From contig OY762825.2 of the NCBI GenBank assembly GCA_963666425.2, positions 2,400,001 through 2,464,000 of the forward strand: 64,000 nucleotides of DNA. Direction: 5' to 3'. Of the stretch, positions 1,516-29,578 are shown piece by piece. Within the stretch, counting starts at the first letter, position 1, and each line of letters begins with the position of its first letter. This stretch comes from Bacillota bacterium. Lineage in GTDB: Bacteria; Bacillota; JAAYKD01. The notes beneath the pieces are model-generated. The model ran no database searches and was not told the DNA's origin. It was given only the letters and a program-made list of their open reading frames with translations. A program made the translations under genes and the position numbers.

Positions 1516-2454
1516 GGTTGATTACCTCCATCTTTATTTAACCAATGCGACATTGAAACTTGAAATAGACAATAAGATCCTCTATATGGTAATCACATTT
1601 TATATCATTTCTAGTCATTTGTCAAATTAAGTTATAATAATTCGAATATAGCTAAATAAATTAGATATACCTATTATTTTATTATAAAGAGAAATAGACT
1701 TTTTATAAAATTCCATATACATAAAAATTCTATATCTAACATTATTATATAATAATTGCGGTAAAATCTTAGCAACTCTGAGAAATAAAAGGAATTTCAT
1801 TCATACTGAATAAATACAAAACGGAAAAAATGTTCATTGTATTTTCCGACGATTTACCAGACTTAGTAATTACACTGCTGCATTGGGAATATTGTAAAGC
1901 AACAAGGAAAGAAATTGGGGATGAACTCACGACTATTCTCTTTATTTGGAAATCAGGTATAATTGGAATTCTACTTAAGCAAATTATGTAAAATAAAAGT
2001 ATCCTGATCATTGTTCTTTTTGTAACTTTTGCACGCTTTTATCTTTAATGAATTTCCCACTCAACTCATAATTTCTTAATCTAGGACCGAGTTGGACATA
2101 GTCAATACCAGTTTGATGAATATTAGCGAATCGTATATAAATCTATATGCTGATCTTTCTATTTATAGTGTTCATACGCTTTGCCTGGTATGATTTTCTA
2201 ATTAAGTCCTATTGAGTATTAGATTTATTTTTGAAAATCATAAATAAAGATTATAGAAATTGAAAAAGCATCTAGTCAATGGCATGGATCTCCAATTGCA
2301 GTCTCTTAACTTACTAGCTATTTTACAAATTTATTATAATGATTATCCTATTTTGTAAAGGTATTTTGTAACTATTGTTGAATAAATTAAGTAAGAATTC
2401 TTGTTTGACTTAGCGGTTCTTTTAATCAACGCGAACGAAGAGGAGATGGATAAT

Positions 2455-5400
2455 ATGAAATTCAATAGAAGATACAAAAGGATCTTATTGATTGTAACCT
2501 TAGCATTGGTTTTGCTTTTTCAACCTGGCTCTGCGATAGCCGCCAGAACGACTATTGCGATTGATAATACAATTTCTGACTGGGCAGGGGTAGGTACTTC
2601 AGCATCGGACCCGGTTGGTGATGTCAACGGGGTTGGTCCTAATGACTTAATTCGTATATGGGTTACGAATGACGAGACTAATATGTACGTTCGATGGGAT
2701 ATTGATATGACGGGCAAAGCAACGAGTATCAAGAGTAGTGCTTATGGATTAGCGATTGATAAAGATTTGAACGGGGTTGCCGATTCCTTTGCATGGGTCG
2801 CGTTTGATTCACAAGGAGTTATTTCCGCTTCAATTGAAAATGTAACAACAGGGGTTACAACGACTTTGAGTCCATCTGCCACTTACGTTACTCAGATTAA
2901 TACCGGTTCCGCTAAAACAGTGACTTCTGTAGAATCTAAGTTCCCCTTTGTCAGCCTGGCAATTCCAGCAACCTCTTCAGCGCTTCTATGGGCTGAAACC
3001 CATTCCAGTCCGGTTTCAACTTCTGTCGTTAAAGACAGAGCTCCTGACGGTGGCAATTTCAACATGAATTTCACGGATGGAAATTGGGTTCCCAATGGTA
3101 CGGGTATGGTTTTAGATATTAGTAAAGGAACGAACCGAAGCAATGTACCCAGCGGTTCACAAGTCACTTATACAATTCAGATTAGGAATACCGGTTCGGC
3201 AGCAGGAGCGATATCCAGTTTAGTGGATACCCTTCCAGCTGGCTTTACTTATGTCGCAGGATCTTCCTCAGGCATTACTTCCAACAATCCGACCATTAGC
3301 ACAACTGCAGGGACACAAACACTGACATGGATTCTCTCTCCATCTATACCTGCCGGGTCATCGGTAACCCAGACTTTTACTGCTGCTGCAAGCAGCACTT
3401 TGGGAACGTATTATAACAATGCAACTGTTATGTATTCCAGCCTGTCATTGCAGACCGGAGATACAGCGAAGGTCACGGTAGTGGCCAATAGTACACCGGT
3501 GATGTCGAGCAACTCGAATAATACTTCGCAAACCATCGCAGAAGGCAGCGGTTTGTCAGCCATTACAGCAACAGACGCGGATTTAGATACTCTTGTCTAC
3601 ACAAAAACTTCAGGTACGTTACCGGCAGGTATTACTTTGAATAGTAATGGCAGTTTCAGCGGAACAGCTAGCTATACATCTGCGGGGTCTTACCCAGTAG
3701 TCATTACAGTTACGGACGGTAATGGCGGCTCGACTTTTACAAATTTGGCGATAACAGTAACCGATGTTAATAGTGCACCCTCGTATACGGGCGCTGCAGC
3801 CAATACCGCGCAAACAATTGCTGAGGGAAGCGGCTTGACAGCGTTGGCAGCAGCCGATCCGGATGGCACAACCTTAACTTATACACTAACAACGGGCAGT
3901 TTACCGGCTGGCATTAATCTGAATGCCAACGGAACTTTCAGCGGAACCGCAAGCTACGATACAGCCGGATCTTCTCCTTATAGTGTCACCATCACAGCTT
4001 CTGACGGCAGCTTGACAGCAGCTACCAATTTAGTAATTACGGTCAACAATACCAATCGTGCACCATCGTATACAGGTGCTGCAGCCAATACCGCGCAGAC
4101 AATTGCTGAGGGGAGCGGCTTGACAGCGTTGGCAGCAGCTGATCCGGATGGTACGACCTTAACTTATACGTTAACAACGGGCAGTTTGCCGGCTGGCATT
4201 ACGCTGAATGCTAATGGAACTTTCAGCGAAACCGCAAGCTACGATGCAGCCGGATCTTCTCCTTACAGTGTTACCATCACGGCTTCCGATGGCAGTTTGA
4301 CAGCAGCTACCAATTTAGCAATTACGGTCAACAATACCAACCGCGCACCGGAATTCACAGGCGCTGCAACCAATACCGCGCAGACAATTGCTGAAGGAAG
4401 CGGCTTGACAGCGTTGGCAGCAGCCGATCCAGATGGCACAACCTTAACTTATACGTTAACAGCGGGCAGTTTACCGGCTGGCATTAATCTGAATGCCAAC
4501 GGAACTTTCAGCGGAACCGCAAGCTACGATGCAGCCGGATCTTCTCCTTACAATGTTACCATCACGGCTTCCGATGGCAGTTTGACAGCAGCTACCAATT
4601 TAGCAATTACGGTCAACAATACCAACCGCGAACCGGAATTTACAGGCGCTGCAGCCAATACCGTACAGACAATTGCTGAAGGAAGCGGCTTGACAGCGTT
4701 GGCAGCAGCCGATCCGGATGGCACGACCTTAACTTATACGTTAACAGCGGGCAGTTTACCGGCTGGCATTAATCTGAATGCCAACGGAACTTTCAGCGGA
4801 ACCGCAAGCTACGATGCAGCCGGATCTTCTCCTTACAATGTTACCATCACGGCTTCCGATGGCAGTTTGACAGCAGCTACCAATTTAGCAATTACGGTCA
4901 ACAATACCAACCGCGAACCGGAATTCACAGGCGCTGCAGCCAATACCGCGCAGACAATTGCTGAAGGAAGCGGCTTGACAGCGTTGGCAGCAGCCGATCC
5001 GGATGGCACGACCTTAACTTATACGTTAACAGCGGGCAGTTTACCGGCTGGCATTAATCTGAATGCCAACGGAACTTTCAGCGGAACCGCAAGCTACGAT
5101 GCAGCCGGATCTTCTCCTTACAATGTTACCATCACGGCTTCCGATGGCAGTTTGACAGCAGCTACCAATTTAGCAATTACGGTCAACAATACCAACCGCG
5201 AACCGGAATTCACAGGCGCTGCAGCCAATACCGCGCAGACAATTGCTGAAGGAAGCGGCTTGACAGCGTTGGCAGCAGCCGATCCGGACAGTGATACCTT
5301 GACCTACAGTTTAACCAGTGGGACTTTGCCAATCGGTATCACTTTTAATGCAGATGGAACTTTTACCGGAGCAACAAGTCCTGGTTCTAGCGGAACTTTT

Positions 5401-8400
5401 CCGCTGATGTTCTCCGTCAGTGATGGTACCATGACAGATACAACAACATTAAACCTGACTGTAAGCAATACCAACCACGCGCCGGAATTCACAGGTGCTG
5501 CAACCAATACCGCACAGACAATTGCTGAGGGAAGCGGCTTGACAGCGTTGGCAGCAGCTGATCCGGATGGTACGACCTTAACTTATACACTAACAACGGG
5601 CAGTTTGCCGGCTGGCATTACGCTGAATGCTAATGGAACTTTCAGCGGGACCGCAAGCTACGATGCAGCTGGATCTTCCCCTTACAGTGTCACTATCACG
5701 GCTTCCGATGGCAGCTTGACAGCAGCTACCAATTTAGTAATTACGGTCAACAATACCAACCGCGCACCATCGTATACAGGCGCTGCGACTAATACTGCGC
5801 AGACAATTGCTGAAGGAAGCGGCTTGACAGCGTTGGCAGCAGCCGATCCGGACAGTGATACCTTGATCTACAGTGTAACCTCCGGCAGCTTACCGAGTGG
5901 CGTAACGTTAAACAACAATGGAACTTTCAGCAGCAGCGCAAGCTACACCGCAGCAGGCGACTACCCGATTGAGATCACGGTTTCAGACGGTAAAGGCGGC
6001 ACAGATACAACCAGCCTGACGATTACAGTCAGCGATGTCGACCGCGACCCGATTTTCACAGGCGATGCAACCAACACCGCGCAGACAATAGCGGAAGGTG
6101 CAGCACCGGCAGCCTTAGCAGCCACCGACGATGCTGACGAAACACTCAGTTACAGCCTAACCTCCGGCAGCTTACCGAGCGGCGTAACGCTAAACAACAA
6201 TGGAACTTTCAGCGGCAGCACAAGCTACACCGCAGCAGGCGACTACCCGGTTGTGATTACAGTTTCAGACGGCAAAGGCGGCACAGATACAACTAATCTG
6301 ACTATTACGGTCAGCGATGTTAATAGAGATCCGATCTTCACCGCAGCAGCAACAAACACTGCGCAGACAATAGCGGAAGGTGCAGCACCGGCGGCCTTAG
6401 CAGCCACCGACGATGCCGACGAGACGCTCAGCTATAGTGTAACCTCCGGCAGCCTGCCGAGCGGCGTAACGTTAAACAACAATGGAACTTTCAGCGGCAG
6501 CCCAAGCTACACCGCAGCAGGCAGTTATCCGGTTGAGATCACAGTTTCAGACAGCAAAGGCGGCAGCGATACGACCAACCTGACGATTACAGTCAGCGAT
6601 GTTAACAGAGATCCGATCTTCACCGCAGCGTTAACTAACACCGCACAGACGATTGCAGAAGGTGCAGCACCGGCAGCCTTAGCGGCCACCGACGATGCTG
6701 ACGAAACACTCAGTTACAGCGTAACCTCCGGCAGCTTACCGAGCGGCGTAACGCTAAACAACAATGGAACTTTCAGCGGCAGCGTAAGTTACACCGCAGC
6801 AGGCGACTACCCGGTTGTGATTACAGTTTCAGACGGCAAAGGCGGCACAGATACAACTAATCTGACTATTACGGTCAGCGATGTTAACAGAGATCCGATC
6901 TTCACCGCAGCAGCAACAAACACCGCGCAGACGATTGCTGAAGGTGCAGCACCGGCAGCCTTAGCAGCCACCGACGATGCCGACGAAACACTCAGTTACA
7001 GCGTAACCTCCGGCAGTTTACCGAGCGGCGTAACGTTAAACAGCAATGGAACTTTCAGCGGCAGCGCAAGCTACACCGCAGCAGGCGACTATCCGGTTGT
7101 GATTACAGTTTCAGATGGCAAAGGCGGCACAGATACGACCAACCTGACAATTACGGTCAGCGATGTTAACCGCGACCCGATTTTCACAGGCGCTGCAACC
7201 AACACCGCGCAGACAATAGCGGAAGGTGCAGCACCGGCAGCCTTAGCAGCCACCGACGATGCTGACGAAACACTCAGTTACAGCCTAACCTCCGGCAGCT
7301 TACCGAGCGGATTAACACTCAATGCCAATGGCAGCTTCAGCGGCAGCGCAAGCTACATCGCAGCAGGCGACTACCCGGTTGTGATTACAGTTTCAGATGG
7401 CAAAGGCGGCAGCGATACGACCAACCTGACAATTACAGTCAGCGACGTCAACCGTGACCCGATCTTTACAGGCGCTGCAACCAACACCACACAAACAATT
7501 GCGGAAGGTGCAACACCGGCAGCACTCGCGGCAACGGACGATGCCGACGAAACACTCAGTTACAGCGTAACTTCCGGCAGCTTACCAAGTGGATTGACAC
7601 TCAATGCCAACGGCAGCTTCAGCGGCAGCGCAAGCTACATCGCAGCAGGCGACTACCCGGTTGTGATTACAGTTTCAGATGGCAAAGGCGGCAGCGATAC
7701 GACCAACCTGACAATTACAGTCAGCGACGTCAACCGTGACCCGATCTTTACAGGCGCTGCAACCAACACCACACAAACAATTGCGGAAGGTGCAACACCG
7801 GCAGCACTCGCGGCAACGGACGATGCCGACGAAACACTCAGTTACAGCGTAACTTCCGGCAGCTTACCAAGTGGATTGACACTCAATGCCAACGGCAGCT
7901 TCAGCGGCACAGCAAGCTACACCGCAGCAGGCGACTATCCGGTTGTGATCACAGTTTCAGACGGCAAAGGCGGCAGCGATACGACCAACCTGACGATTAC
8001 AGTCAGCGATGTCAATCGTGATCCGGTCTTCACCGCTGCTCTAACCAATACCGCGCAGACAATAGCGGAAGGTGCTGCACCGGCAGCACTCGCGGCAACG
8101 GATGATGCTGACGAAACACTCAGTTACAGCGTAACCTCCGGCAGCTTGCCGAGCGGATTAACACTCAATGCCAACGGCAGTTTCAGCGGCAGCACAAGCT
8201 ACACCGCAGCAGGTAACTACCCGATTGAGATCACAGTTTCAGACGGCAAAGGCGGCACAGACACCACCAACCTGACAATTACAGTCAGCGATGTCAATCG
8301 TGATCCGATCTTCACCGCAGCTGCAACCAATACCACACAGACGATTGCGGAAGGTGCAGCACCGGCAGCCTTAGCAGCCACCGACGATGCTGACGAAACA

Positions 8401-11400
8401 CTCAGTTACAGCGTAACCTCCGGCAGTTTACCGAGCGGCGTAACGTTAAACAGCAATGGAACTTTCAGCGGCAGCGCAAGCTACACCGCGGCAGGCAGTT
8501 ATCCGGTTGAGATCACAGTTTCAGACAGCAAAGGCGGCACAGATACAACTAATCTGACTATTACGGTCAGCGATGTTAACCGCGACCCAATCTTCACCGC
8601 AGCGTTAACCAACACCGCACAGACGATTGCGGAAGGTGCAGCACCGGCAGCGCTCGCAGCCACCGACGATGCAGACGAAACGCTTAGCTACAGTGTAACT
8701 TCCGGCAGCTTGCCGAGCGGATTAACACTCAATGCCAACGGCAGTTTCAGCGGCAGCACAAGCTACACCGCAGCAGGCGACTACCCGGTTGTGATTACAG
8801 TTTCAGACGGCAAAGGCGGCACAGATACAACTAATCTGACTATTACGGTCAGCGATGTTAACCGAGATCCGGCTTTCACCGCCGCTGCAATCAATACTGC
8901 ACAAACAATTGCGGAAGGCACTGCGCCGGCAGCCTTAGCGGCCACCGACGATGCTGACGAAACACTCAGTTACAGCGTAACCTCCGGCAGCTTACCGAGC
9001 GGATTAACACTCAATGCCAATGGCAGCTTCAGCGGCAACGCAAGTTACACCGCAGCAGGCGACTACCCGGTTGTGATTACAGTTTCAGACGGCAAAGGCG
9101 GCAGTGATACGACTAACCTGACGATTACAGTCAGTGACGTTAACCGCGCCCCGATCTTTACAAGCGCTGTAACTAACACTGCACAGACGATAGCGGAAGG
9201 TGCAGCACCGGCAGCCTTAATTGCAACGGATGACGCGGACGAGACACTAAGCTACAGTGTAACCTCCGGCAGCCTGCCGAGCGGACTGACGTTGAACAGC
9301 AACGGCAGCTTCAGCGGCAGCGCAAGCTACACCGCAGCAGGCGACTACCCGGTTGTGATCACAGTTTCAGACGGCAAAGGCGGCACAGATTCGACTAACC
9401 TGACGATTACGGTTAGCGATGTCAACCGCGACCCAATCTTCACAGGCGCTGTAACTAACACTACACAGACGATTGCGGAAGGCGGCACACCGGCAGCACC
9501 CGCGGCAACGGATGATGCTGACGAAACGCTTAGCTACAGCGTAACCTCCGGCAGCTTGCCGAGCGGATTAACACTCAATGCCAACGGCAGCTTCAGCGGC
9601 AGCGCAAGCTACACCGCAGCGGGTGACTACCCGATTGAAATCACGGTTTCTGACGGCAAAGGCGGCACAGATACGACCAACCTGACAATTACAGTCAGCG
9701 ATGTCAATCGTGACCCGATCTTTACCGCAGTTGCAACAAACACCGCGCAGACAATAGCGGAAGGCACAGCACCGGCAGCGCTCGCAGCCACCGATGACGC
9801 AGACGAAACGCTTAGCTACAGTGTAACTTCCGGCAGCTTGCCGAGCGGATTAACACTCAATGCCAACGGCAGTTTCAGCGGCAGCACAAGCTACACCGCA
9901 GCAGGCGACTACCCGGTTGTGATTACAGTTTCAGACGGCAAAGGCGGCACAGATACAACTAATCTGACTATTACGGTCAGCGATGTTAACCGAGATCCGG
10001 GTTTCACCGCCGCTGCAATCAATACTGCACAAACAATTGCGGAAGGCACTGCGCCGGCAGCCTTAGCGGCCACCGACGATGCTGACGAGACACTAAGCTA
10101 CAGTGTAACCTCCGGAAACTTACCAAGTGGATTGACACTCAATACCAATGGCAGCTTCAGCGGCAGCGCAAGCTACACCGCAGCAGGCGACTACCCGGTT
10201 GTGATCACAGTTTCAGACGGCAAAGGCGGCACAGACACCACCAACCTGACGATTACGGTCAGCGATGTCAACCGCGACCCGATCTTTACAGGCGCTGTAA
10301 CTAACACCACACAAACAATTGCGGAAGGTGCAGCACCGGCAGCCTTAGCAGCCACCGACGATGCTGACGAAACGCTCAGCAACAGCGTAACCTCCGGCAG
10401 TTTACCGAGCGGATTAACACTCAATGCCAACGGCAGTTTCAGCGGCAGCACAAGCTACACCGCAGCGGGTGACTACCCAATTGAGATTACAGTTTCAGAC
10501 GGCAAAGGCGGCACAGATACAACTAATCTGACAATTACGGTCAGCGATGTTAACAGAGATCCGATCTTCACCGCAGCAGCAACAAACACCGCGCAGACGA
10601 TTGCTGAAGGTGCAGCACCGGCCGCGCTCGCAGCCACCGATGACGCTGACGAAACGTTTAGCTACAGTGTAACTTCCGGCAGCTTACCGAGCGGCGTAAC
10701 GTTAAACAACAATGGAACTTTCAGCGGCACAGCAAGTTATATTTCGTCCGGCAGTTACCCGGTTGTGATCACAGTTTCAGACGGCAAAGGCGGCACAGAC
10801 ACCACCAACCTGACAATTACAGTCAGCGACGTCAACCGCGACCCGATCTTCACAGGCGCTGTAACTAACACTGCACAGACGATTGCAGAAGGTGCAGCAC
10901 CGGCAGCACTCGCGGCAACGGATGATGCTGACGAAACGCTTAGCTACAGCGTAACTTCCGGCAGCTTACCAAGTGGATTGACACTCAATGCCAACGGCAG
11001 CTTCAGCGGCACAGCAAGCTACACCTCATCCGGCAGTTATCCGGTTGAGATCACAGTTTCAGACGGCAAAGGCGGCACAGATACGACCAACCTGACAATT
11101 ACAGTCAGCGATGTCAATCGTGATCCTATCTTCACCGCAGCTGCAACCAATACTGCGCAGACAATAGCGGAAGGCACAGCACCGGCAGCGCTCGCAGCCA
11201 CCGATGACGCTGACGAAACGCTTAGCTACAGCGTAACCTCCGGCAGCTTACCGAGCGGATTAACACTCAATGCCAACGGCAGCTTCAGCGGCAGCGCAAG
11301 CTACACCGCAGCAGGCGACTACCCGGTTGTGATTACAGTTTCAGACGGCAAAGGCGGCAGTGATACGACTAACCTGACGATTACAGTCAGCGATGTCAAT

Positions 11401-14400
11401 CGTGATCCGATCTTCACAGGCGCTGCAACCAACACTGCGCAAACAATAGCGGAAGGTGCAGCACCGGCGGCCTTAACAGCCACCGACGATGCAGACGAAA
11501 CGCTTAGCTACAGTGTAACTTCCGGCAGCTTGCCGAGCGGATTAACACTCAATGCCAACGGCAGTTTCAGCGGCAGCACAAGCTACACCGCAGCAGGCGA
11601 CTACCCGGTTGTGATTACAGTTTCAGACGGCAAAGGCGGCACAGATACGACCAACCTGACGATTACAGTCAGCGATGTTAACCGCGACCCAATCTTCACC
11701 GCAGCGTTAACCAACACCGCACAGACGATTGCGGAAGGTGCAACACCGGCAGCACTCGCGGCAACGGACGATGCCGACGAAACACTCAGTTACAGCGTAA
11801 CTTCTGGCAGCTTACCAAGTGGATTGACACTCAATGCCAACGGCAGCTTCAGCGGCAGCGCAAGCTACACCGCAGCAGGCGACTACCCGGTTGTGATTAC
11901 AGTTTCAGATGGCAAAGGCGGCAGCGATACGACCAACCTGACAATTACAGTCAGCGACGTCAACCGCGCTCCAGTCTTCACCGCTGCAGCAGGAAACACG
12001 GCGCAGACAATAGTGGAAGGTGCAGCACCGGCAGCCTTAGCAGCCACCGACGATGCTGACGAAACACTCAGTTACAGCGTTACCTCCGGCAGCTTACCGA
12101 GCGGATTAACACTCAATACCAATGGCAGCTTCAGCGGCAGCGCAAGCTACACCGCAGCGGGTGACTACCCGGTTGGAATCACGGTTTCTGACGGTAAAGG
12201 CGGCAGCGATACGACTAACCTGACGATTACAGTCAGCGATGTTAACCGTGATCCGGCTTTCACCGCAGCAGCAACAAACACTGCACAGACGATTGCAGAA
12301 GGTGCAGCACCGGCAGCCTTAGCGGCAACCGATGACGCTGACGAAACACTCAGTTACAGCGTAACCTCCGGCAGCTTACCGAGTGGCGTAATGTTAAACA
12401 ACAATGGAACTTTCAGCGGCACAGCAAGCTACACCTCATCCGGCAGTTATCCGGTTGAGATCACAGTTTCAGACGGCAAAGGCGGCACAGACACCACCAA
12501 CCTGACGATTACGGTCAGTGACGTCAACCGCGACCCGATCTTCACCGCAGTTGCAACAAACACCGCGCAGACAATAGCGGAAGGCACAGCACCGGCAGCC
12601 TTAGCGGCCAGCGACGACGCGGACGAGACACTAAGCTACAGTGTAACCTCCGGCAGCCTGCCGAGCGGATTAACACTCAATGCCAACGGCAGCTTCAGCG
12701 GCAGCGCAAACTACACCGCAGCGGGTGACTATCCGGTTGAGATTACAGTTTCAGACACCAAAGGCGGCAGTGATACGACTAACCTGACGATTACGGTCAG
12801 TGATGTCAACCGTGATCCGATCTTCACCGCAGCGTTAACCAATACCGCGCAGACAATAGCGGAAGGTGCAGCACCGGCCGCGCTCGCAGCCATCGACGAT
12901 GCTGATGAAACGCTCAGTTACAGCGTAACCTCCGGCAGTTTACCGAGCGGCGTAACGTTAAACAATAATGGAACTTTCAGCGGCACAGCAAGTTATATTT
13001 CGTCCGGCAGTTACCCGGTTGTGATCACAGTTTCAGACGGCAAAGGCGGCACAGATACGACCAACCTGACAATTACGGTCAGTGACGTCAACCGTGACCC
13101 GATCTTCACAGGCGCTGCAACCAACACTGCGCAAACAATTGTGGAAGGTGCAACACCGGCGGCCTTAGCAGCCACCGACGATGCCGACGAAACACTCAGT
13201 TACAGCGTAACCTCCGGCAGCTTACCGAGCGGATTAACACTCAATGCCAATGGCAGCTTCAGCGGCACAGCAAGCTACACCGCGGCAGGCAGTTATCCGG
13301 TTGAGATCACAGTTTCAGACAGCAAAGGCGGCAGCGATACGACCAACCTGACGATTACGGTCAGTGATGTCAACCGCGACCCGATCTTCACAGGCGCTGT
13401 AACTAACACCACACAAACAATAGCGGAAGGTGCAGCACCGGCCGCGCTCGCAGCCATCGACGATGCTGATGAAACGCTCAGCTACAGCGTAACCTCCGGC
13501 AGCTTACCAAGTGGATTGACACTCAATACCAATGGCAGCTTCAGCGGCAGCGTAAGTTACACCGCAGCAGGCGACTACCCGGTTGTGATTACAGTTTCAG
13601 ACGGCAAAGGCGGCACAGATACAACTAATCTGACAATTACAGTCAGCGACGTCAACCGCGACCCGATCTTCACAGGCGCTGTAACTAACACTGCACAGAC
13701 GATTGCAGAAGGTGCAGCACCGGCAGCCTTAGCGGCCACCGACGATGCTGACGAAACACTCAGTTACAGCGTAACCTCCGGCAGCTTACCGAGCGGATTA
13801 ACACTCAATACCAATGGCAGCTTCAGCGGCAGCGCAAGCTACACCGCAGCGGATGACTACCCGGTTGTGATTACAGTTTCAGATGGCAAAGGCGGCACAG
13901 ATACGACCAACCTGACGATTACAGTCAGTGATGTCAATCGCGACCCGATCTTTACAGGCGCTGCAACCAATAGCGCGCAGACGATTGCAGAAGGTAGTGT
14001 GTTAGCTTCTCTTATTGCAACAGATCCAGACAGTGATTCTCTTGATTACAGTATCAGCAGTGGCTTATTACCAGCTGGAATCACCCTGAATTCGGATGGA
14101 ACATTCAGCGGAACAGTAAATTATACATCGGCAGGGTCCTATCCGGTAACTGTTTTGATTGTTGACGGCAAGGGTGGCAGCATCTCTCAATCTCTTATCA
14201 TTCATATCGATAATACAAATACAATACCCAGTATACAAACCTTGACAGACCGTACTGATAGAGAAGGAATATCAATTGACCTCAATATTACTTCGACGGA
14301 TATCGATGGAGATATTCTTACTTATACTGCAGTGAATCTGCCTTTGGGAATCACAATCCATCCAAACACTGGCAAATTGGAAGGAACGCTGACACTTCCG

Positions 14401-17400
14401 GATGTTTATCAGGTTCGGATTATCGTTCGGGATGGAGCAGGCAATGAAGCTACTTCTTCATTCACTTGGACGGTAGACCCACTGCTGCTAGACGGATGGG
14501 TTGAAGCAGGTTTGTGGTCGGATTGGACTAGAGTGGATTATCGCAGTTTGTGGGTAGAACAAGCTTATGCCGCGGGCAATCCGTTGAAAATCGCTGTTTT
14601 AGCGGATCCTACCATCACCGAAGTAATTGCAGAAATCCATCAAATTGATCCATTGGAGAATTTAAGCTCGGCTTTAGGACGTTTTATCTTGACCCCAGTA
14701 GCGACTGATTTATATGCTGGAAGTTCGGATTTTAAACTCTGGAATGCAACAGTAATTCTGCCTGATGATCTGTTGGAAGGTCGCTATTTCATTACGTTCG
14801 AAGCAAAATCCGGCAGCTATGTTGTAGAGGATTCACAACCTGCTACTGAAATCACGGAACCAGGACAGAATAATTATTTCACAGTCAAGAATATATTCGG
14901 ACTTTGGGGGATCATTAGTGAAAGATCGAGCGGAAAGTTAGTGAATGGAGCCTCTATTCGCTTGTTCGATTTATCAGGGCGATTGGTTGAGACAACTACC
15001 AGTGACATAAATGGATACTATCTATTCAGTAATTTGAAAGCCAATCAATATAGCTTAGTAACCGAAGATGCTCGTTATTCTACCAGTAATATGGTTGTCA
15101 ATGTAGTCTCATCCGACTTGACACAGACCATGATCCGGCAAGATATTGGGTTAGTGAAATTCAGTATTCGTTTTTCTGCCAATCCAACCACGATTGTGGG
15201 AGATGGAGTAGAAACTACTCAACTTACTGCTCAATTATTTGATGAGAATGGAGCCGTTGCACCCGGTATTGAGATTAATTTCAGTGCCAGTGCAGGCAGC
15301 TTTGTCGGTCCATCAATGGGGATAACGGATGCAGATGGGAAAGTCTCTGTAACATTAAGATCCAGTAAAATTGAAGGTGTGATGGCAGTCATTATACCGA
15401 TCACAGCAGTGGTGGATGACCCAGTTCGGGACCTTTACGGAGAAGCACGCATTTTGATGACCTTTGCCCCAGGAGCATTGAAAGGAATTGTGACTGATCG
15501 TGATTTGAATATTCCTGTAGCAGGTGCCGAAGTAACGGTTTACAAGGATTTTGACAATGATGGGATTACTGATTTCAGTGCAACATTTATTACCGGGGCT
15601 GATGGTTCCTACAAAATTGCCATCCCTCGCGGGGATGTAGTCTATGACATTCAAATTAAAAAACCTGTTCATATTGGTGATAGTACTGTAATGATGACCT
15701 TCCCACAAAAAGGGACTAGCGGAGCAATCAGTGGGCTAGGAACTGAAGAATTCAACTCGGAGATTACTGGTGCCGGTGTCATTGTTTATAAAGATACCAA
15801 TGGCAGCACAAAGGTTTTAACTGATTACAGTGATTTTAGCTTGAAAATTGAAAAAATCGAAGTCGGAGGTAATTTAGTAGCCAGCGGACTGACTGGAGGA
15901 ATCGCTCCCTCTACTGGGGTATTCCAAATCAATAACTTAGCAAAAGGAACTGATTATAAAGTCGAGGTCATGAGAGAAATATCGGCTGGGGAATTTATTA
16001 CGGTAGGCTATCAGGATATCACAGTCAGTCAAGACGGCGAGATCAATCTGGGGACGTTGGAATTGATTGATCCTTATGGTATCATTACAGATTCCGTAAC
16101 CGGAAATGCGATTGGAAATGCGTTAGTGCAATTGTATTATGCTAATACAGCATTAAATCTCGGTAACGGTCTGATTCCGGATACTCTTGTTACACTTCCG
16201 GCATTAGCTTCATTCCCTCCGGCGAATAATGCGAATCCGCAAAGAAGTGATTCGACCGGGCAGTATGCCTTTATGGTCTTTCCAAATACGGATTACTATA
16301 TCCTCTCCTCCCATCCGAATTACAATTCTTACAAAAGTCCTATTATTTCAGTTGGATTAGTGATTGTAAAACATGATTTCCAGATGACGGCAATTCCAGA
16401 TGAAGACATAATTTCTGTGAATGCAGATTTGTATGTCACGCTGACATCGAATCAGATGAAGTATTTGGAAGGAGAAAAGATCAATTTGACAATCGAGTAT
16501 GGAAACTTGACTGCCAAATCGGCTGAAAACGTGTTGATCATATTCACCCTTCCTTCCTATACAACAGTAGAAAATGCCGGACTTGGAATTGTGAACGGAA
16601 ACTTAGTGACCTGGGAACTGGGAACTTTGACAGCAAAGTCACAAGGATCTTTAGAAATCGAATTAAGCGTTTCAGAGATTCCTGAACAAACCACAATGGT
16701 AACTGCAAAAACAGAGATCCAATCCTCAACGAGCTTAATCAATAAAAATAACGACCAATCTTCGCTGGACATGCTGTTGTTAAGCAATCGTTTTGAGACC
16801 GGTATTCACGAGCAGTATATTATCGGATATGGCAATAGAGATTTCAAACCTTATCGGTCAATTACGAGAGCAGAAATCGCAACAATCTTCTCGCGAATCA
16901 TGCATCTCAACCTGGTTGACGTTCCTGGACAGTATAATGATGTAATCGGTTCGGAATGGTATAGTCAAGCAATTCATGCGGTGAGTAAGGCAGGCTTAAT
17001 GAGTGGATATCCGGATGGAAGCTTTAAACCGGACCAATCAATCACGAGAGCAGAATTGATTTCAGTCATTAGCCGTTTCCTAAAATCCGGAACTTATACA
17101 GGGTTACAACCGGATTTAACAGATATTTCTGGCCATTGGGCTTATAATGACATCGCAGAAATGTATCGTATTGGAATCATCACTGGATATGAAGACAAGA
17201 CATTCCACCCTGATTTACCAATAAATCGAGCAGAAGCAGTAACGATGATCAATCATCTGCTTTTTAGAGGTCCATTGAAGGTAGAAACCCCAACTTTCAT
17301 TGACGTACTACCCTCTGATTGGTTTTATGGAGAAGTAGAAGAAAGTGCACATACCCACGAATTTAAAGTTCAGCTCGGTGGAGCAGAGGAATTGGTTCGT

Positions 17401-17412
17401 TATCTCGATTAA
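2455..17412 (+). CDS. Giant cell-surface adhesin (~4,985 aa): signal peptide, N-terminal domain, DUF11-like domain, ~39 cadherin/He_PIG-like Ig repeats, carboxypeptidase-regulatory-like and Big_1-like domains, second DUF11-like domain, three C-terminal SLH domains
   Basis: ORF 2401..17412; likely start ATG 2455 after RBS GAGGAG. LDISKG...VTYTIQIRNTG...DTLPAGFTYV is DUF11-like. Repeats carry TIAEG/ATDxD/SDG/DVNRxP. C-terminus has ITRAEIA, ITRAELI and INRAEAV SLH motifs. Confidence 0.92.
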   Translation: MKFNRRYKRILLIVTLALVLLFQPGSAIAARTTIAIDNTISDWAGVGTSASDPVGDVNGVGPNDLIRIWVTNDETNMYVRWDIDMTGKATSIKSSAYGLAIDKDLNGVADSFAWVAFDSQGVISASIENVTTGVTTTLSPSATYVTQINTGSAKTVTSVESKFPFVSLAIPATSSALLWAETHSSPVSTSVVKDRAPDGGNFNMNFTDGNWVPNGTGMVLDISKGTNRSNVPSGSQVTYTIQIRNTGSAAGAISSLVDTLPAGFTYVAGSSSGITSNNPTISTTAGTQTLTWILSPSIPAGSSVTQTFTAAASSTLGTYYNNATVMYSSLSLQTGDTAKVTVVANSTPVMSSNSNNTSQTIAEGSGLSAITATDADLDTLVYTKTSGTLPAGITLNSNGSFSGTASYTSAGSYPVVITVTDGNGGSTFTNLAITVTDVNSAPSYTGAAANTAQTIAEGSGLTALAAADPDGTTLTYTLTTGSLPAGINLNANGTFSGTASYDTAGSSPYSVTITASDGSLTAATNLVITVNNTNRAPSYTGAAANTAQTIAEGSGLTALAAADPDGTTLTYTLTTGSLPAGITLNANGTFSETASYDAAGSSPYSVTITASDGSLTAATNLAITVNNTNRAPEFTGAATNTAQTIAEGSGLTALAAADPDGTTLTYTLTAGSLPAGINLNANGTFSGTASYDAAGSSPYNVTITASDGSLTAATNLAITVNNTNREPEFTGAAANTVQTIAEGSGLTALAAADPDGTTLTYTLTAGSLPAGINLNANGTFSGTASYDAAGSSPYNVTITASDGSLTAATNLAITVNNTNREPEFTGAAANTAQTIAEGSGLTALAAADPDGTTLTYTLTAGSLPAGINLNANGTFSGTASYDAAGSSPYNVTITASDGSLTAATNLAITVNNTNREPEFTGAAANTAQTIAEGSGLTALAAADPDSDTLTYSLTSGTLPIGITFNADGTFTGATSPGSSGTFPLMFSVSDGTMTDTTTLNLTVSNTNHAPEFTGAATNTAQTIAEGSGLTALAAADPDGTTLTYTLTTGSLPAGITLNANGTFSGTASYDAAGSSPYSVTITASDGSLTAATNLVITVNNTNRAPSYTGAATNTAQTIAEGSGLTALAAADPDSDTLIYSVTSGSLPSGVTLNNNGTFSSSASYTAAGDYPIEITVSDGKGGTDTTSLTITVSDVDRDPIFTGDATNTAQTIAEGAAPAALAATDDADETLSYSLTSGSLPSGVTLNNNGTFSGSTSYTAAGDYPVVITVSDGKGGTDTTNLTITVSDVNRDPIFTAAATNTAQTIAEGAAPAALAATDDADETLSYSVTSGSLPSGVTLNNNGTFSGSPSYTAAGSYPVEITVSDSKGGSDTTNLTITVSDVNRDPIFTAALTNTAQTIAEGAAPAALAATDDADETLSYSVTSGSLPSGVTLNNNGTFSGSVSYTAAGDYPVVITVSDGKGGTDTTNLTITVSDVNRDPIFTAAATNTAQTIAEGAAPAALAATDDADETLSYSVTSGSLPSGVTLNSNGTFSGSASYTAAGDYPVVITVSDGKGGTDTTNLTITVSDVNRDPIFTGAATNTAQTIAEGAAPAALAATDDADETLSYSLTSGSLPSGLTLNANGSFSGSASYIAAGDYPVVITVSDGKGGSDTTNLTITVSDVNRDPIFTGAATNTTQTIAEGATPAALAATDDADETLSYSVTSGSLPSGLTLNANGSFSGSASYIAAGDYPVVITVSDGKGGSDTTNLTITVSDVNRDPIFTGAATNTTQTIAEGATPAALAATDDADETLSYSVTSGSLPSGLTLNANGSFSGTASYTAAGDYPVVITVSDGKGGSDTTNLTITVSDVNRDPVFTAALTNTAQTIAEGAAPAALAATDDADETLSYSVTSGSLPSGLTLNANGSFSGSTSYTAAGNYPIEITVSDGKGGTDTTNLTITVSDVNRDPIFTAAATNTTQTIAEGAAPAALAATDDADETLSYSVTSGSLPSGVTLNSNGTFSGSASYTAAGSYPVEITVSDSKGGTDTTNLTITVSDVNRDPIFTAALTNTAQTIAEGAAPAALAATDDADETLSYSVTSGSLPSGLTLNANGSFSGSTSYTAAGDYPVVITVSDGKGGTDTTNLTITVSDVNRDPAFTAAAINTAQTIAEGTAPAALAATDDADETLSYSVTSGSLPSGLTLNANGSFSGNASYTAAGDYPVVITVSDGKGGSDTTNLTITVSDVNRAPIFTSAVTNTAQTIAEGAAPAALIATDDADETLSYSVTSGSLPSGLTLNSNGSFSGSASYTAAGDYPVVITVSDGKGGTDSTNLTITVSDVNRDPIFTGAVTNTTQTIAEGGTPAAPAATDDADETLSYSVTSGSLPSGLTLNANGSFSGSASYTAAGDYPIEITVSDGKGGTDTTNLTITVSDVNRDPIFTAVATNTAQTIAEGTAPAALAATDDADETLSYSVTSGSLPSGLTLNANGSFSGSTSYTAAGDYPVVITVSDGKGGTDTTNLTITVSDVNRDPGFTAAAINTAQTIAEGTAPAALAATDDADETLSYSVTSGNLPSGLTLNTNGSFSGSASYTAAGDYPVVITVSDGKGGTDTTNLTITVSDVNRDPIFTGAVTNTTQTIAEGAAPAALAATDDADETLSNSVTSGSLPSGLTLNANGSFSGSTSYTAAGDYPIEITVSDGKGGTDTTNLTITVSDVNRDPIFTAAATNTAQTIAEGAAPAALAATDDADETFSYSVTSGSLPSGVTLNNNGTFSGTASYISSGSYPVVITVSDGKGGTDTTNLTITVSDVNRDPIFTGAVTNTAQTIAEGAAPAALAATDDADETLSYSVTSGSLPSGLTLNANGSFSGTASYTSSGSYPVEITVSDGKGGTDTTNLTITVSDVNRDPIFTAAATNTAQTIAEGTAPAALAATDDADETLSYSVTSGSLPSGLTLNANGSFSGSASYTAAGDYPVVITVSDGKGGSDTTNLTITVSDVNRDPIFTGAATNTAQTIAEGAAPAALTATDDADETLSYSVTSGSLPSGLTLNANGSFSGSTSYTAAGDYPVVITVSDGKGGTDTTNLTITVSDVNRDPIFTAALTNTAQTIAEGATPAALAATDDADETLSYSVTSGSLPSGLTLNANGSFSGSASYTAAGDYPVVITVSDGKGGSDTTNLTITVSDVNRAPVFTAAAGNTAQTIVEGAAPAALAATDDADETLSYSVTSGSLPSGLTLNTNGSFSGSASYTAAGDYPVGITVSDGKGGSDTTNLTITVSDVNRDPAFTAAATNTAQTIAEGAAPAALAATDDADETLSYSVTSGSLPSGVMLNNNGTFSGTASYTSSGSYPVEITVSDGKGGTDTTNLTITVSDVNRDPIFTAVATNTAQTIAEGTAPAALAASDDADETLSYSVTSGSLPSGLTLNANGSFSGSANYTAAGDYPVEITVSDTKGGSDTTNLTITVSDVNRDPIFTAALTNTAQTIAEGAAPAALAAIDDADETLSYSVTSGSLPSGVTLNNNGTFSGTASYISSGSYPVVITVSDGKGGTDTTNLTITVSDVNRDPIFTGAATNTAQTIVEGATPAALAATDDADETLSYSVTSGSLPSGLTLNANGSFSGTASYTAAGSYPVEITVSDSKGGSDTTNLTITVSDVNRDPIFTGAVTNTTQTIAEGAAPAALAAIDDADETLSYSVTSGSLPSGLTLNTNGSFSGSVSYTAAGDYPVVITVSDGKGGTDTTNLTITVSDVNRDPIFTGAVTNTAQTIAEGAAPAALAATDDADETLSYSVTSGSLPSGLTLNTNGSFSGSASYTAADDYPVVITVSDGKGGTDTTNLTITVSDVNRDPIFTGAATNSAQTIAEGSVLASLIATDPDSDSLDYSISSGLLPAGITLNSDGTFSGTVNYTSAGSYPVTVLIVDGKGGSISQSLIIHIDNTNTIPSIQTLTDRTDREGISIDLNITSTDIDGDILTYTAVNLPLGITIHPNTGKLEGTLTLPDVYQVRIIVRDGAGNEATSSFTWTVDPLLLDGWVEAGLWSDWTRVDYRSLWVEQAYAAGNPLKIAVLADPTITEVIAEIHQIDPLENLSSALGRFILTPVATDLYAGSSDFKLWNATVILPDDLLEGRYFITFEAKSGSYVVEDSQPATEITEPGQNNYFTVKNIFGLWGIISERSSGKLVNGASIRLFDLSGRLVETTTSDINGYYLFSNLKANQYSLVTEDARYSTSNMVVNVVSSDLTQTMIRQDIGLVKFSIRFSANPTTIVGDGVETTQLTAQLFDENGAVAPGIEINFSASAGSFVGPSMGITDADGKVSVTLRSSKIEGVMAVIIPITAVVDDPVRDLYGEARILMTFAPGALKGIVTDRDLNIPVAGAEVTVYKDFDNDGITDFSATFITGADGSYKIAIPRGDVVYDIQIKKPVHIGDSTVMMTFPQKGTSGAISGLGTEEFNSEITGAGVIVYKDTNGSTKVLTDYSDFSLKIEKIEVGGNLVASGLTGGIAPSTGVFQINNLAKGTDYKVEVMREISAGEFITVGYQDITVSQDGEINLGTLELIDPYGIITDSVTGNAIGNALVQLYYANTALNLGNGLIPDTLVTLPALASFPPANNANPQRSDSTGQYAFMVFPNTDYYILSSHPNYNSYKSPIISVGLVIVKHDFQMTAIPDEDIISVNADLYVTLTSNQMKYLEGEKINLTIEYGNLTAKSAENVLIIFTLPSYTTVENAGLGIVNGNLVTWELGTLTAKSQGSLEIELSVSEIPEQTTMVTAKTEIQSSTSLINKNNDQSSLDMLLLSNRFETGIHEQYIIGYGNRDFKPYRSITRAEIATIFSRIMHLNLVDVPGQYNDVIGSEWYSQAIHAVSKAGLMSGYPDGSFKPDQSITRAELISVISRFLKSGTYTGLQPDLTDISGHWAYNDIAEMYRIGIITGYEDKTFHPDLPINRAEAVTMINHLLFRGPLKVETPTFIDVLPSDWFYGEVEESAHTHEFKVQLGGAEELVRYLD
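3519..6071 (+). repeat. Intragenic tandem repeat block A: 9 units of 279-285 bp (93-95 aa), cadherin-like
   Basis: NTAQTIAEGSGL starts recur at about 3519, 3801, 4086, 4371, 4656, 4941, 5226, 5505 and 5790. Confidence 0.9.
6072..13967 (+). repeat. Intragenic tandem repeat block B: 28 units of 282 bp (94 aa), cadherin-like
   Basis: NTAQTIAEGAAPAALAATDDADETLSYSVTSGSLPSG...VSDGKGGTDTTNLTITVSDVNRDP repeats at a 282-bp period from 6072 to 13967. Confidence 0.92.
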
Positions 17413-17502: not shown

Positions 17503-17538
17503 AAAAAACAACCTTGTCGTAAGACAAGGTTGTTTTTT
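17503..17538. terminator. Bidirectional intrinsic terminator between the adhesin gene and the tRNA cluster
   Basis: AAAAAACAACCTTGTC-GTAA-GACAAGGTTGTTTTTT, a perfect stem with A and T tails. Confidence 0.85.
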
Positions 17539-17630
17539 TGGCGGAGAGAAAGGGATTCGAACCCTTGAACGGTTTAACCCGTTACACGATTTCCAGTCGT
17601 GCGCCTTCGACCAGACTCAGCCATCTCTCC
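17539..17630 (-). tRNA. tRNA-Ser(GGA)
   Basis: GGAGAGATGG...CACGA-CTGGAAA-TCGTG, long variable arm, GGTTCGAATCC, ends GCCA. Confidence 0.97.
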
Positions 17631-17672
17631 ATGGATTAAGTTATGCAATCTCTCAGTGAGAAGACAAAAAGC

Positions 17673-17701
17673 ATTATAACAAATACGATGATAAAAATCA
17701 A
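17673..17701 (-). promoter_or_regulatory. SigA promoter for tRNA-Ser(GGA)
   Basis: TTGATT-17 bp-TATAAT with an extended -10 TG on the minus strand. Confidence 0.7.
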
Positions 17702-17741
17702 GCTTTTATTCGGCAAGAACTTGTCTTTCTAAGAATAGAAC

Positions 17742-17831
17742 TGGCGGAGAGAGCGAGATTCGAACTCGCGAGGCGTTTCAGCGCCTACTCGCTTTCGAGG
17801 CGAGCGCATTCGGCCACTCTGCCATCTCTCC
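17742..17831 (-). tRNA. tRNA-Ser(CGA); its first 47 nt overlap the end of tadA
   Basis: GGAGAGATGGCAGAGTGGCCGAATGCG-CTCGC-CTCGAAA-GCGAG, variable arm, GAGTTCGAATCTC, ends GCCA. Confidence 0.96.
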
Positions 17832-18282
17832 GTTTATCACGCAATTCCTGAAAAAAATGAGACAACAGGGAGGCACAGGCTTCAGCACAAATGCCGGAAG
17901 TCACTTCAACTCTGTGGTTCATTCTCTCATCCTGAAGTAAATTATACAGTGTTCCGGCACATCCGGCCTTCGGATCCGCAACACCAAAGACAACCCGCTC
18001 AATGCGAGCTTGCAAAATAGCCCCGGCGCACATAGCGCAAGGTTCTACTGTGACATATAAAGTGCAATTGAGTAATCGCCAGCCGCCTAAAGTTTCTGAT
18101 GCATCTCGAATGGCAATCATTTCTGCATGAGCGGTAGGGTCACGCCAAGTCTCCCGCCGGTTAAATCCCTGACCTACAATTCGGTTGCCTTGCACAATAA
18201 TGGCTCCAATAGGAACTTCACCTAAGCGGGCAGCAGACATTGCTTGCTGCAATGCCAAGTTCATTCCAAATTCATCGTCCAT
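17785..18282 (-). CDS. tadA: tRNA-specific adenosine-34 deaminase
   Basis: EVPIGA, DPTAHAE, EPCAMC zinc-deaminase motifs, DPKAG, and the C-terminal FFxxLR helix. Confidence 0.95.
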   Translation of the reverse strand: MDDEFGMNLALQQAMSAARLGEVPIGAIIVQGNRIVGQGFNRRETWRDPTAHAEMIAIRDASETLGGWRLLNCTLYVTVEPCAMCAGAILQARIERVVFGVADPKAGCAGTLYNLLQDERMNHRVEVTSGICAEACASLLSHFFQELRDKRRDGRVAECARLESE

Positions 18283-18320
18283 AGTACACCACCGTTCATC
18301 CTAAAACTCCGGTTGGAGGA

Positions 18321-18396
18321 TGGCGCCCCCGAAAGGAATCGAACCTCCGACGCAGAGCTTAGGAAGCTCTCGCTCTATCCACTGAGCTACGGGGGC
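18321..18396 (-). tRNA. tRNA-Arg(CCT)
   Basis: GCCCCCGTAGCTCAGTGGATAGAGC-G-AGAGC-TTCCTAA-GCTCT...GGTTCGATTCC...GCCA. Confidence 0.96.
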
Positions 18397-18403
18397 AAAA
18401 AAA

Positions 18404-18480
18404 TGGTGCGCCCGGAGGGATTCGGACCCCCGACCACCAAGTTCGTAGCCTGTTACTCTATCCAGCTGAGCTACGGGCGC
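18404..18480 (-). tRNA. tRNA-Arg(ACG) with atypical T-loop (TCCGAAT)
   Basis: GCGCCCGTAGCTCAGCTGGATAGAGT-A-ACAGG-CTACGAA-CTTGG...GGGGG-TCCGAAT-CCCTC-CGGGCGC-ACCA. Confidence 0.93.
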
Positions 18481-18484
18481 ATCA

Positions 18485-18523
18485 ACGGCATATACCATAG
18501 CATATGCCGTCGTAAAATGTCAA
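18485..18523 (-). promoter_or_regulatory. Promoter of the tRNA-Arg/tadA cluster, with an inverted repeat around the -10
   Basis: TTGACA-18 bp-TATGGT (TG-extended). ACGGCATAT-N8-ATATGCCGT brackets the -10. Confidence 0.6.
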
Positions 18524-18567: not shown

Positions 18568-18954
18568 TTATTCAGCGATTTCTTCCTTAATCTCAGCCTC
18601 AGGAGCATTATTGGTAACAGATTCCATGCCGTTCACACAGCTGATTTTTTGTTTATACCCTTCACTAACGGCAATAATCTCACCATTCCGGGCTTTTAAA
18701 CGGAAACGGTATTCTCCGGATTTATCTTTATACATTTCAAATTTGGGATGCGATTGCGGAACAACCTGATCCAGCGTTTGATCCTCAATTTTCGCGATCA
18801 CTGCGTTCTTTTTGACACTTTCAATGCCATTGATACAACTGGCTTTGGTTTGATAATTTTCGCTCGTTGCAATTACTTGCCCGTTGGATGCAAGTAAGTC
18901 AAAGCGAAAAGCTCCACTGGCAGTAATCTTCATAACGAACTTACCTTTAGCCAT
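18568..18954 (-). CDS. YegP/UPF0339 family protein (two DUF1508 repeats)
   Basis: FRFDLLASNGQVIATSENY...CINGIESVK and YRFRLKARNGEIIAVSEGY...CVNGMESV. Start ATG 18954 after GGAGGG. Confidence 0.9.
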   Translation of the reverse strand: MAKGKFVMKITASGAFRFDLLASNGQVIATSENYQTKASCINGIESVKKNAVIAKIEDQTLDQVVPQSHPKFEMYKDKSGEYRFRLKARNGEIIAVSEGYKQKISCVNGMESVTNNAPEAEIKEEIAE

Positions 18955-29226: not shown

Positions 29227-29578
29227 GGGGGCGTAATGGTTTCGACGGGGATAGGATTGATCTGGTAAGCGAGCCGTGGACCAGGGCCACGTTAAAACTT
29301 GGACGACAGATAACTGTCAACAACAATCAATTAATCGCTGCTTAGTAAATAAGTAGCCGTTCGACCAGCCTACCGCCGACGGGGCTGGGCGAGCGTCATT
29401 AAGTCGGCTACCCGGTAGGAGACGACCGTATCCTATTTGGGGAAACACACGGAATAGTGTAGGGCAGATTTGGCGATAGGAAGCTGCCTGAGGCGATAAC
29501 TCAAATCGATCGCTGCGCTCGGAGAAAGCCTTATTGGTTCATTTTCGGACATGGGTTCGATTCCCATCGCCTCCACCA
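29227..29578 (+). ncRNA. ssrA: tmRNA; predicted tag (A)VNNNQLIAA* at 29316-29345
   Basis: 5' GGGGGCGTAATGGTTTCGACGGGG, 3' GACATGGGTTCGATTCCCATCGCCTCCACCA (G3-U acceptor pair), ATAACT resume context, and an ORF ending AA-stop. Confidence 0.97.

Follow-up and report, generated by a model that had tools for sequence, protein, structure and literature searches.

The closest described parallel to the gene arrangement analyzed here comes from phage T4, where maturation of a downstream tRNA cuts the segB transcript between its last sense codon and its stop codon (PMC2330249). This cut is proposed there to lower expression by destabilizing the message and leaving an incomplete product, and homing endonucleases of phage T5 are mentioned for the same idea (PMC2330249). 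The T4 and T5 cases are same-strand open reading frames (ORF) in a tRNA cluster, with a stop codon that does not precede the site of 5' maturation of the following tRNA, and tadA in the bacterial chromosome studied here displays both features. The T4 and T5 frames are selfish phage homing endonucleases, whereas the product of tadA is a conserved cellular enzyme, presumably essential, whose substrates include a tRNA of its own operon; moreover, tadA overlaps reach 56 nt, are found in several families and phyla, and sometimes share an invariant codon with the tRNA. Since the bacterial ORF encodes TadA and not a phage homing endonuclease, its overlap would by analogy work like the segB/T5 type, without belonging to that group. 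What is new here relative to T4 segB is a conserved cellular tRNA-editing gene and a deep, recurrent overlap.

In Escherichia coli, the arfA transcript is cut by RNase III within a hairpin, which generates a non-stop message; the fate of the product depends on tmRNA, truncated ArfA is active and, with arfA encoding a rescue factor, a feedback loop is closed. The cut predicted in tadA likewise lies upstream of the stop, and the truncated product would keep its functional part. However, the arfA cut is made by RNase III in a hairpin while RNase P is predicted to act at a tRNA in tadA, TadA has no link to ribosome rescue, and there is no homology between the two. The E. coli secG-leuU and tufB operons produce messenger-tRNA co-transcripts that are separated by RNase P, with the stop codon upstream of the tRNA. 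As proposed for the tadA operon, one transcript there carries both protein and tRNA genes, with the messenger end set by RNase P, but the released message is intact in secG-leuU/tufB, whereas the tadA stop is inside the tRNA. In mitochondrial tRNA punctuation, excision of tRNAs sets the message ends, and incomplete stop codons are completed by polyadenylation. There too ORFs can abut or overlap tRNAs, but the stop is incomplete, whereas tadA has a complete stop that lies inside the tRNA. Polyadenylation-based completion of stop codons is not known in bacteria.

The tadA operon and its junction with tRNA-Ser(CGA)

The tadA gene lies on the minus strand of the window (the whole 64,000-nt stretch of DNA that was analyzed), in a cluster with the following features.

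18494..18523, minus strand: promoter-like site (TTGACA, 18-nt spacer, TG-TATGGT), with 10/12 consensus matches; a pattern match only
18404..18480, minus strand: tRNA-Arg(ACG), first gene of the operon (ARAGORN and Rfam, 55.7 bits)
18321..18396, minus strand: tRNA-Arg(CCT) (ARAGORN and Rfam, 63.3 bits)
17785..18282, minus strand: tadA coding frame, 165 codons plus TAG (matches to NF008113, Pfam, and solved TadAs)
17831..17832, minus strand: predicted RNase P cleavage site, C17832/G17831, placed from the tRNA 5' end and RNase P action
17785..17831, minus strand: 47 nt common to tadA and tRNA-Ser(CGA), comprising part of the R151 codon, residues 152-165, and the stop
17742..17831, minus strand: tRNA-Ser(CGA) with encoded CCA (ARAGORN and Rfam, 57.5 bits)
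17673..17701, minus strand: second promoter-like site (TTGATT, 17 nt, TG-TATAAT), from a consensus scan
17539..17630, minus strand: tRNA-Ser(GGA), final gene of the cluster (ARAGORN and Rfam)
17503..17534, minus strand: 12-bp hairpin followed by a T run, read from the sequence and absent from the terminator/promoter scan list

The order on the minus strand is thus promoter, tRNA-Arg(ACG), tRNA-Arg(CCT), tadA, tRNA-Ser(CGA), tRNA-Ser(GGA), and terminator, in which the site at 18494..18523, located 13 nt upstream of tRNA-Arg(ACG), is the presumed operon promoter, and the hairpin at 17503..17534 is a likely intrinsic terminator. From the promoter to tRNA-Ser(CGA), this order had been given in a preliminary description of the locus, which was right in every detail.

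As judged from its sequence, the 165-aa product is TadA, the tRNA adenosine(34) deaminase, and is predicted to deaminate A34. It scores 188 bits against the TadA equivalog model NF008113 (cut-off 150), is matched by the Pfam families MafB19-deam and dCMP_cyt_deam_1, and is matched by solved TadA structures with E values from 2.4e-52 to 6.4e-45, the best being Staphylococcus aureus TadA (2b3j, E 2.4e-52). In an alignment of 22 TadAs, the window's included, H52, A53, E54, P81, C82, and C85 are invariant; they belong to the H-A-E and P-C-x-x-C motifs, which we take to be the zinc-binding and catalytic motifs of TadA. The gene is present in a single copy in the 3.2-Mb assembly. The canonical TadA substrate is tRNA-Arg(ACG), which has two copies in this genome, one heading the tadA operon and the other located elsewhere. 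A GGTGG Shine-Dalgarno-like element is found 6 nt 5' of the tadA ATG at 18282. In addition, a 12-codon upstream frame on the minus strand (18261-18299), with its ATG at 18299 and a TGA ending at 18261, overlaps the start of tadA out of frame.

The tRNA-Ser(CGA) gene scores 57.5 bits in Rfam (gathering score 29), is assigned the anticodon CGA by ARAGORN, and folds into a cloverleaf with a long variable arm. It is the sole copy in the assembly, in which UCG accounts for 12% of Ser codons (1388 long frames of the genome). The tadA frame passes from ...FFQELRDK into this tRNA: the R151 codon is c|GG, in which GG are tRNA nucleotides 1-2, and the frame, reading ...FFQELRDKRRDGRVAECARLESE*, terminates at the TAG at 17787-17785. 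This stop, at tRNA positions 45-47, lies directly 3' of the anticodon stem. Here and below, tRNA 5' ends are those called by ARAGORN, with a possible error of 1 nt. As for the reading frame, F143, F144, and R148 are invariant in the 22 aligned TadAs, and FFQELR is in frame after a T7 homopolymer run, so that the frame downstream of this run is correct. Moreover, two contigs of 849 nt, each from a run of a separate study, match 17585-18433 without a single difference, although one of them may be the source sample. The anatomy proposed in the preliminary description is hence borne out on all three counts: the frame extends 47 nt into the tRNA-Ser gene to a stop just 3' of the anticodon stem (ORF and ARAGORN/Rfam coordinates), it is fixed by a conserved helix and is not produced by a homopolymer artefact, and no stop appears before 17831 in the contigs of the two studies, which are identical across the junction.

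The junction is exceptional within its genome. Among the 62 tRNA genes, tRNA-Ser(CGA) is the only one entered by the frame of a real gene, and the next closest same-strand ORF (≥100 aa) stops 42 nt before its tRNA. Another apparent ORF-tRNA overlap was rejected as a spurious frame running through a tRNA array.

As regards expression, there is no promoter or terminator between tadA and tRNA-Ser(CGA), and a consensus-match scan identified no promoter-like (sigma-70-like) site within tadA on the minus strand. The second promoter-like site lies further downstream, inside the 111-nt spacer between tRNA-Ser(CGA) and tRNA-Ser(GGA). Because tRNA-Ser(CGA) is a single-copy gene and tadA harbors no promoter-like site, this tRNA is most simply expressed by transcription through tadA. 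In metatranscriptome runs, which showed small shares (0.05-0.16) and were available as assembled (Logan) contigs only, one contig from an RNA run spans 18266-18427, i.e. the 3' part of tRNA-Arg(ACG), tRNA-Arg(CCT), and the start of tadA. A 216-nt contig bridges the tadA/tRNA-Ser junction (17758-17971), and its run is flagged as probably DNA. Such contigs carry no information on RNA ends, strand, or membership in a single transcript, and neither of the two was counted as evidence for processing or co-transcription.

The tRNA-encoded tail was examined in an AlphaFold2 model of TadA (mean pLDDT 91.5), in which the last helix comprises residues 133-152. The mean pLDDT drops to 60 for residues 151-160 and to 36 for residues 161-165, with residues 158-165 all below 50, and the 15-residue tail is predicted, with low confidence, to be non-helical or disordered. 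The solved TadAs align only up to residue 152-155 of the window's protein, and natural TadAs of 147-150 aa among the surveyed relatives finish right at FFxxxR. Taken together, these three observations indicate that the TadA fold ends where the tRNA begins, the tail being simply what the tRNA sequence spells.

Junctions downstream of tadA in other genomes

A family search detected tadA at E ≤ 1e-30 in 372 of 401 genomes (≥90% complete) of the same phylum. DNA downstream of tadA was compared for the best-scoring 131 of these 372 genomes, which were assembled from successive searches (25 + 26 + 80 genomes) and represent 63 families and 95 genera; the set is ranked by score and contains relatives that are not independent of each other. 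Searches at the level of the order and class yielded no additional genomes because the class has only 10 genomes. Within these best-scoring 131 genomes, the first same-strand tRNA ≤700 nt downstream of tadA is tRNA-Ser(CGA) in 114 and tRNA-Ser(GGA) in 2, and the remaining 15 have no same-strand tRNA in that interval. In the 114 genomes with tRNA-Ser(CGA), the tadA stop falls at the following distances from the tRNA.

Overlap of 10-56 nt: 25/114 genomes
Gap of 0-10 nt: 17/114 genomes
Gap of 11-30 nt: 22/114 genomes
Gap of 31-100 nt: 29/114 genomes
Gap of >100 nt: 21/114 genomes

The recurrence of tRNA-encoded ends, for which a survey had been suggested in the preliminary description, is therefore real (25/114 genomes). 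The overlaps are spread over 13 families and 19 genera. Upstream of tadA (≤600 nt), the 131 genomes carry tRNA-Arg(CCT) in at least 80 cases, tRNA-Arg(ACG) in at least 54, tRNA-Ser(TGA) in at least 44, tRNA-Ser(GCT) in at least 39, and tRNA-Arg(TCG) in at least 6, all of these counts being lower bounds.

The overlaps vary in depth and frame. Their tadA stops lie at tRNA position 8, 12, 20/21, 45/46, or 54. Each of the three possible frames with respect to the tRNA occurs, and the most frequent one gives nGG AGA GAU, i.e. Arg-Arg-Asp, which fits the basic end of TadA. Variation is found even within genera, where the junctions measure -56/-14, -56/-47, -10/-10/+6/+4, and -23/+3 nt (negative values being overlaps). 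The sequence of the tRNA itself has a direct bearing on the stop. At letter 12 of the tRNA gene, the window has A, relative L008 has C, and relative L009 has T, and a T there makes the tadA frame meet TGA at positions 12-14; the tadA stop thus depends on the tRNA sequence. We read this letter as part of the D-stem, where it would vary together with a compensating partner. In 9 of the 25 overlaps (loci L040, L046, L070, L093, L108, L109, L118, L121, and L122), either the codon for the invariant Arg of FFxxxR or the last two codons of this motif straddle nucleotides 1-2 or 1-5 of tRNA-Ser(CGA), so that the 5' end of the tRNA supplies part of an invariant residue.

The overlap state was mapped on a maximum-likelihood tree built from the TadA core without the tails. 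It requires 17 changes, at least 6 of which are forced by well-supported branches alone, and none of 500 label shuffles gave as few (shuffled mean 23). The overlap state is therefore inherited yet labile, being more clustered than in the shuffles and still needing 17 changes. In the order-level clade of the window, which comprises two families and has a support of 98, the overlap is present in 5 of 6 genomes at ∼65% TadA identity, which disposes of the possibility, raised in the preliminary description, that close relatives all stop upstream of the tRNA; the sixth genome has its own tadA stop and a 189-nt spacer. The TadA tail of the window recurs in three sister genomes, a related tail is found in another family, and tails identical to those of Paenibacillus and Veillonellaceae records occur in the surveyed phylum, which on this account is probably Bacillota in its broad sense. 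The window's genus has a single further genome, G001 (97% complete, 70 contigs), which gave no match to tadA and in which the tRNA-rich locus may be unassembled.

The preliminary description had also presented the operon as headed by the substrate of its own enzyme. This holds in the window but not in sister genera, in which tRNA-Arg(TCG) occupies the first slot and the ACG gene is elsewhere. The slot upstream of tadA is filled by tRNA-Arg(TCG) in relatives L002-L005, L013, and L133 (sister genera and one other family), and this tRNA is ∼83% identical to tRNA-Arg(ACG) of the window; ARAGORN detected no tRNA-Arg(TCG) in the genome of the window. An Arg(ACG) gene is present elsewhere in 4 of the 5 such genomes checked, either in a cluster of the order Pro-Arg(TCT)-His-Arg(ACG) or in a large array, and no second hit was found in the fifth, relative G005 (80% complete). 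Loss of the TadA substrate in the Arg(TCG)-led relatives was rejected on the grounds that the ACG gene lies elsewhere in the four scanned genomes.

The arrangement extends to other phyla. Scanning all GTDB species genomes with a pattern and a TadA alignment retrieved at least 80 loci over many phyla, 79 of which were analyzed. Among these 79 loci listed, the first downstream tRNA is tRNA-Ser(CGA) in 21 and tRNA-Ser(GGA) in 4. By record title, the 25 tadA-tRNA-Ser loci listed include Myxococcota, Acidobacteriota, Desulfobacterota-type, Chloroflexota, and Planctomycetota, as well as Poribacteria, Calditrichota, Atribacterota, and Negativicutes. Seventeen of these 25 listed loci have a gap of ≤30 nt, and three loci overlap: a Veillonellaceae MAG (-47), an Atrimonadaceae genome (-48), and a Thermodesulfobacteriota MAG (-2). 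Cross-phylum loci often carry Ser(TGA)-Ser(GCT)-Arg(ACG) upstream of tadA. From these sequence comparisons, the tight tadA/tRNA-Ser junction looks like an ancient synteny shared across phyla. Full-text literature searches, with few subscription journals covered, found no description of tadA ending in tRNA-Ser or of tadA/tRNA-Ser synteny.

Fate of the transcript and origin of the overlap

RNase P cleaves at tRNA 5' ends. The genome encodes a type A RNase P RNA (302.7 bits), and the tadA stop lies 44 nt beyond the predicted cleavage site. With the stop inside the tRNA, textbook RNase P action means that a cut at the tRNA 5' end would remove the only stop codon of tadA. In the model that we propose, tadA would be a passenger messenger in an ancient tRNA operon, without a stop of its own. 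Its frame would run on to a UAG of the tRNA, adding a 15-residue tail set by the tRNA sequence, and each mature tRNA-Ser(CGA) would be cut by RNase P from a tadA-bearing transcript. The cut message would end ...GAU AAA C, one base past codon 150 (K150 being the last full codon), with no stop; full-length TadA would therefore come only from uncut transcripts, probably during or just after transcription. Ribosomes arriving later would run off the message end, and tmRNA-SmpB or RqcH would have to rescue them. All three components, tmRNA, SmpB, and RqcH, are encoded in the genome, and the tmRNA gene is found in the window itself (29227-29578, plus strand), 11 kb from the tadA operon, with a predicted tag VNNNQLIAA (ARAGORN). 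To reach the UAG, a ribosome would presumably have to open the tRNA structure from its 5' end as far as the stop, which would put translation in competition with tRNA maturation for one and the same RNA. The net effect would be to throttle the gene of a low-demand enzyme inside a high-output tRNA operon. Where the invariant Arg codon straddles the tRNA, the complete enzyme would be made only from the uncut transcript, and this sharing argues, at the level of sequence, for translation of precursor transcripts in the living cell.

When the junction is folded together with 99 nt of upstream sequence, the minimum-energy structure contains the acceptor stem, the variable arm, and the T arm of the tRNA. 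No tadA segment pairs with the tRNA in the 196-nt junction fold (z-score -1.41), on which basis a competing RNA structure at the junction was rejected.

How such an overlap arose can be read in several ways. The reading that we favor, with a probability of roughly 60%, is that it is a tolerated, recurrent result of extreme packing that has RNase P consequences without being a purpose-built switch. The overlap belongs to a continuum of junctions, with a 56-nt overlap at one end and spacers hundreds of nt long at the other, and lineages have moved into and out of this state more than once; it is this repeated gain and loss that makes tolerated packing most likely. A dedicated coupling, in which selection has shaped the race between translation and RNase P, together with tmRNA tagging, so that TadA abundance follows tRNA-processing or rescue capacity, much as in arfA, seems to us rather unlikely, even though several observations speak for it. 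The retention of the overlap in 5/6 genomes of the window's clade could, at ∼65% TadA identity, equally reflect selection; overlaps recur in 13 families and in other phyla; and the tRNA supplies part of an invariant codon in 9/25 of them. In addition, the message cut at K150 still encodes the whole predicted fold, so an untagged run-off product could be active, and a like logic is in print for phage T4 segB (PMC2330249). Against selection for coupling, stop position and frame differ among close relatives (five stop positions, three frames), in some sister species tadA ends at a stop of its own, a few nt short of the tRNA, and overlaps grade smoothly into gaps of 1-10 nt. The tRNA is itself the sole conserved feature of the junction, where no competing RNA structure is found. 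Of the earlier reading of the locus, the anatomy stands, and these comparative data (labile stops, three frames, and grading into 1-10-nt gaps) weigh against a dedicated switch.

The overlap would have no consequence for the message if tRNA-Ser(CGA) were expressed independently, from a start of its own in or just after tadA. Because the promoter scan reports consensus matches only, an unconventional internal promoter could have been passed over, but the only second promoter-like site lies further downstream, and in many relatives the tRNA begins 1-7 nt past the stop or even within the conserved motif, so close that a promoter would not fit in between. Read-through transcripts from the operon promoter would, in any case, still include the tRNA, and we regard independent expression as very improbable. 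The idea that a sequencing or assembly error (e.g. in the T7 run) or a decayed gene has produced a false extension has in its favor a homopolymer 40 nt upstream of the junction, but it is hardly credible when set against FFQELR in frame after the run, identical contigs from two studies, the recurrence of the tail in three sisters and of a related tail in a further family, intact catalytic motifs, and a well-scoring, single-copy tRNA. A broader reading is that the junction is an ancient cross-phylum generator of non-stop messages, at which a race between ribosome and RNase P sets TadA output, inosine editing is tied to processing and rescue load, and lineages with a shared codon make the enzyme only on precursors; as a whole, we consider it doubtful, a shade more so than dedicated coupling.

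If tRNA excision does remove the stop of a housekeeping gene, many bacteria would hold a built-in, constitutive source of non-stop messages, which would offer a natural substrate for studies of tmRNA and RqcH rescue outside stress or damage and would show how the gene of a low-demand enzyme persists in a strongly transcribed tRNA operon. In practical terms, annotation pipelines that bar overlaps between coding sequences and tRNAs will truncate or mis-end tadA in about one-fifth of genomes with a tadA-tRNA-Ser(CGA) arrangement.

Protein-coding frames flank the operon on both sides. Just upstream of its promoter, a two-domain protein of the DUF1508 / HVO_2922 family (128 aa) is encoded at 18568-18954 on the minus strand. 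On the other side, a 5003-aa ORF (2401-17412, plus strand) with dozens of near-identical ∼95-aa repeats, whose C-terminal region we take to resemble surface-layer homology repeats, converges on the tRNA operon.
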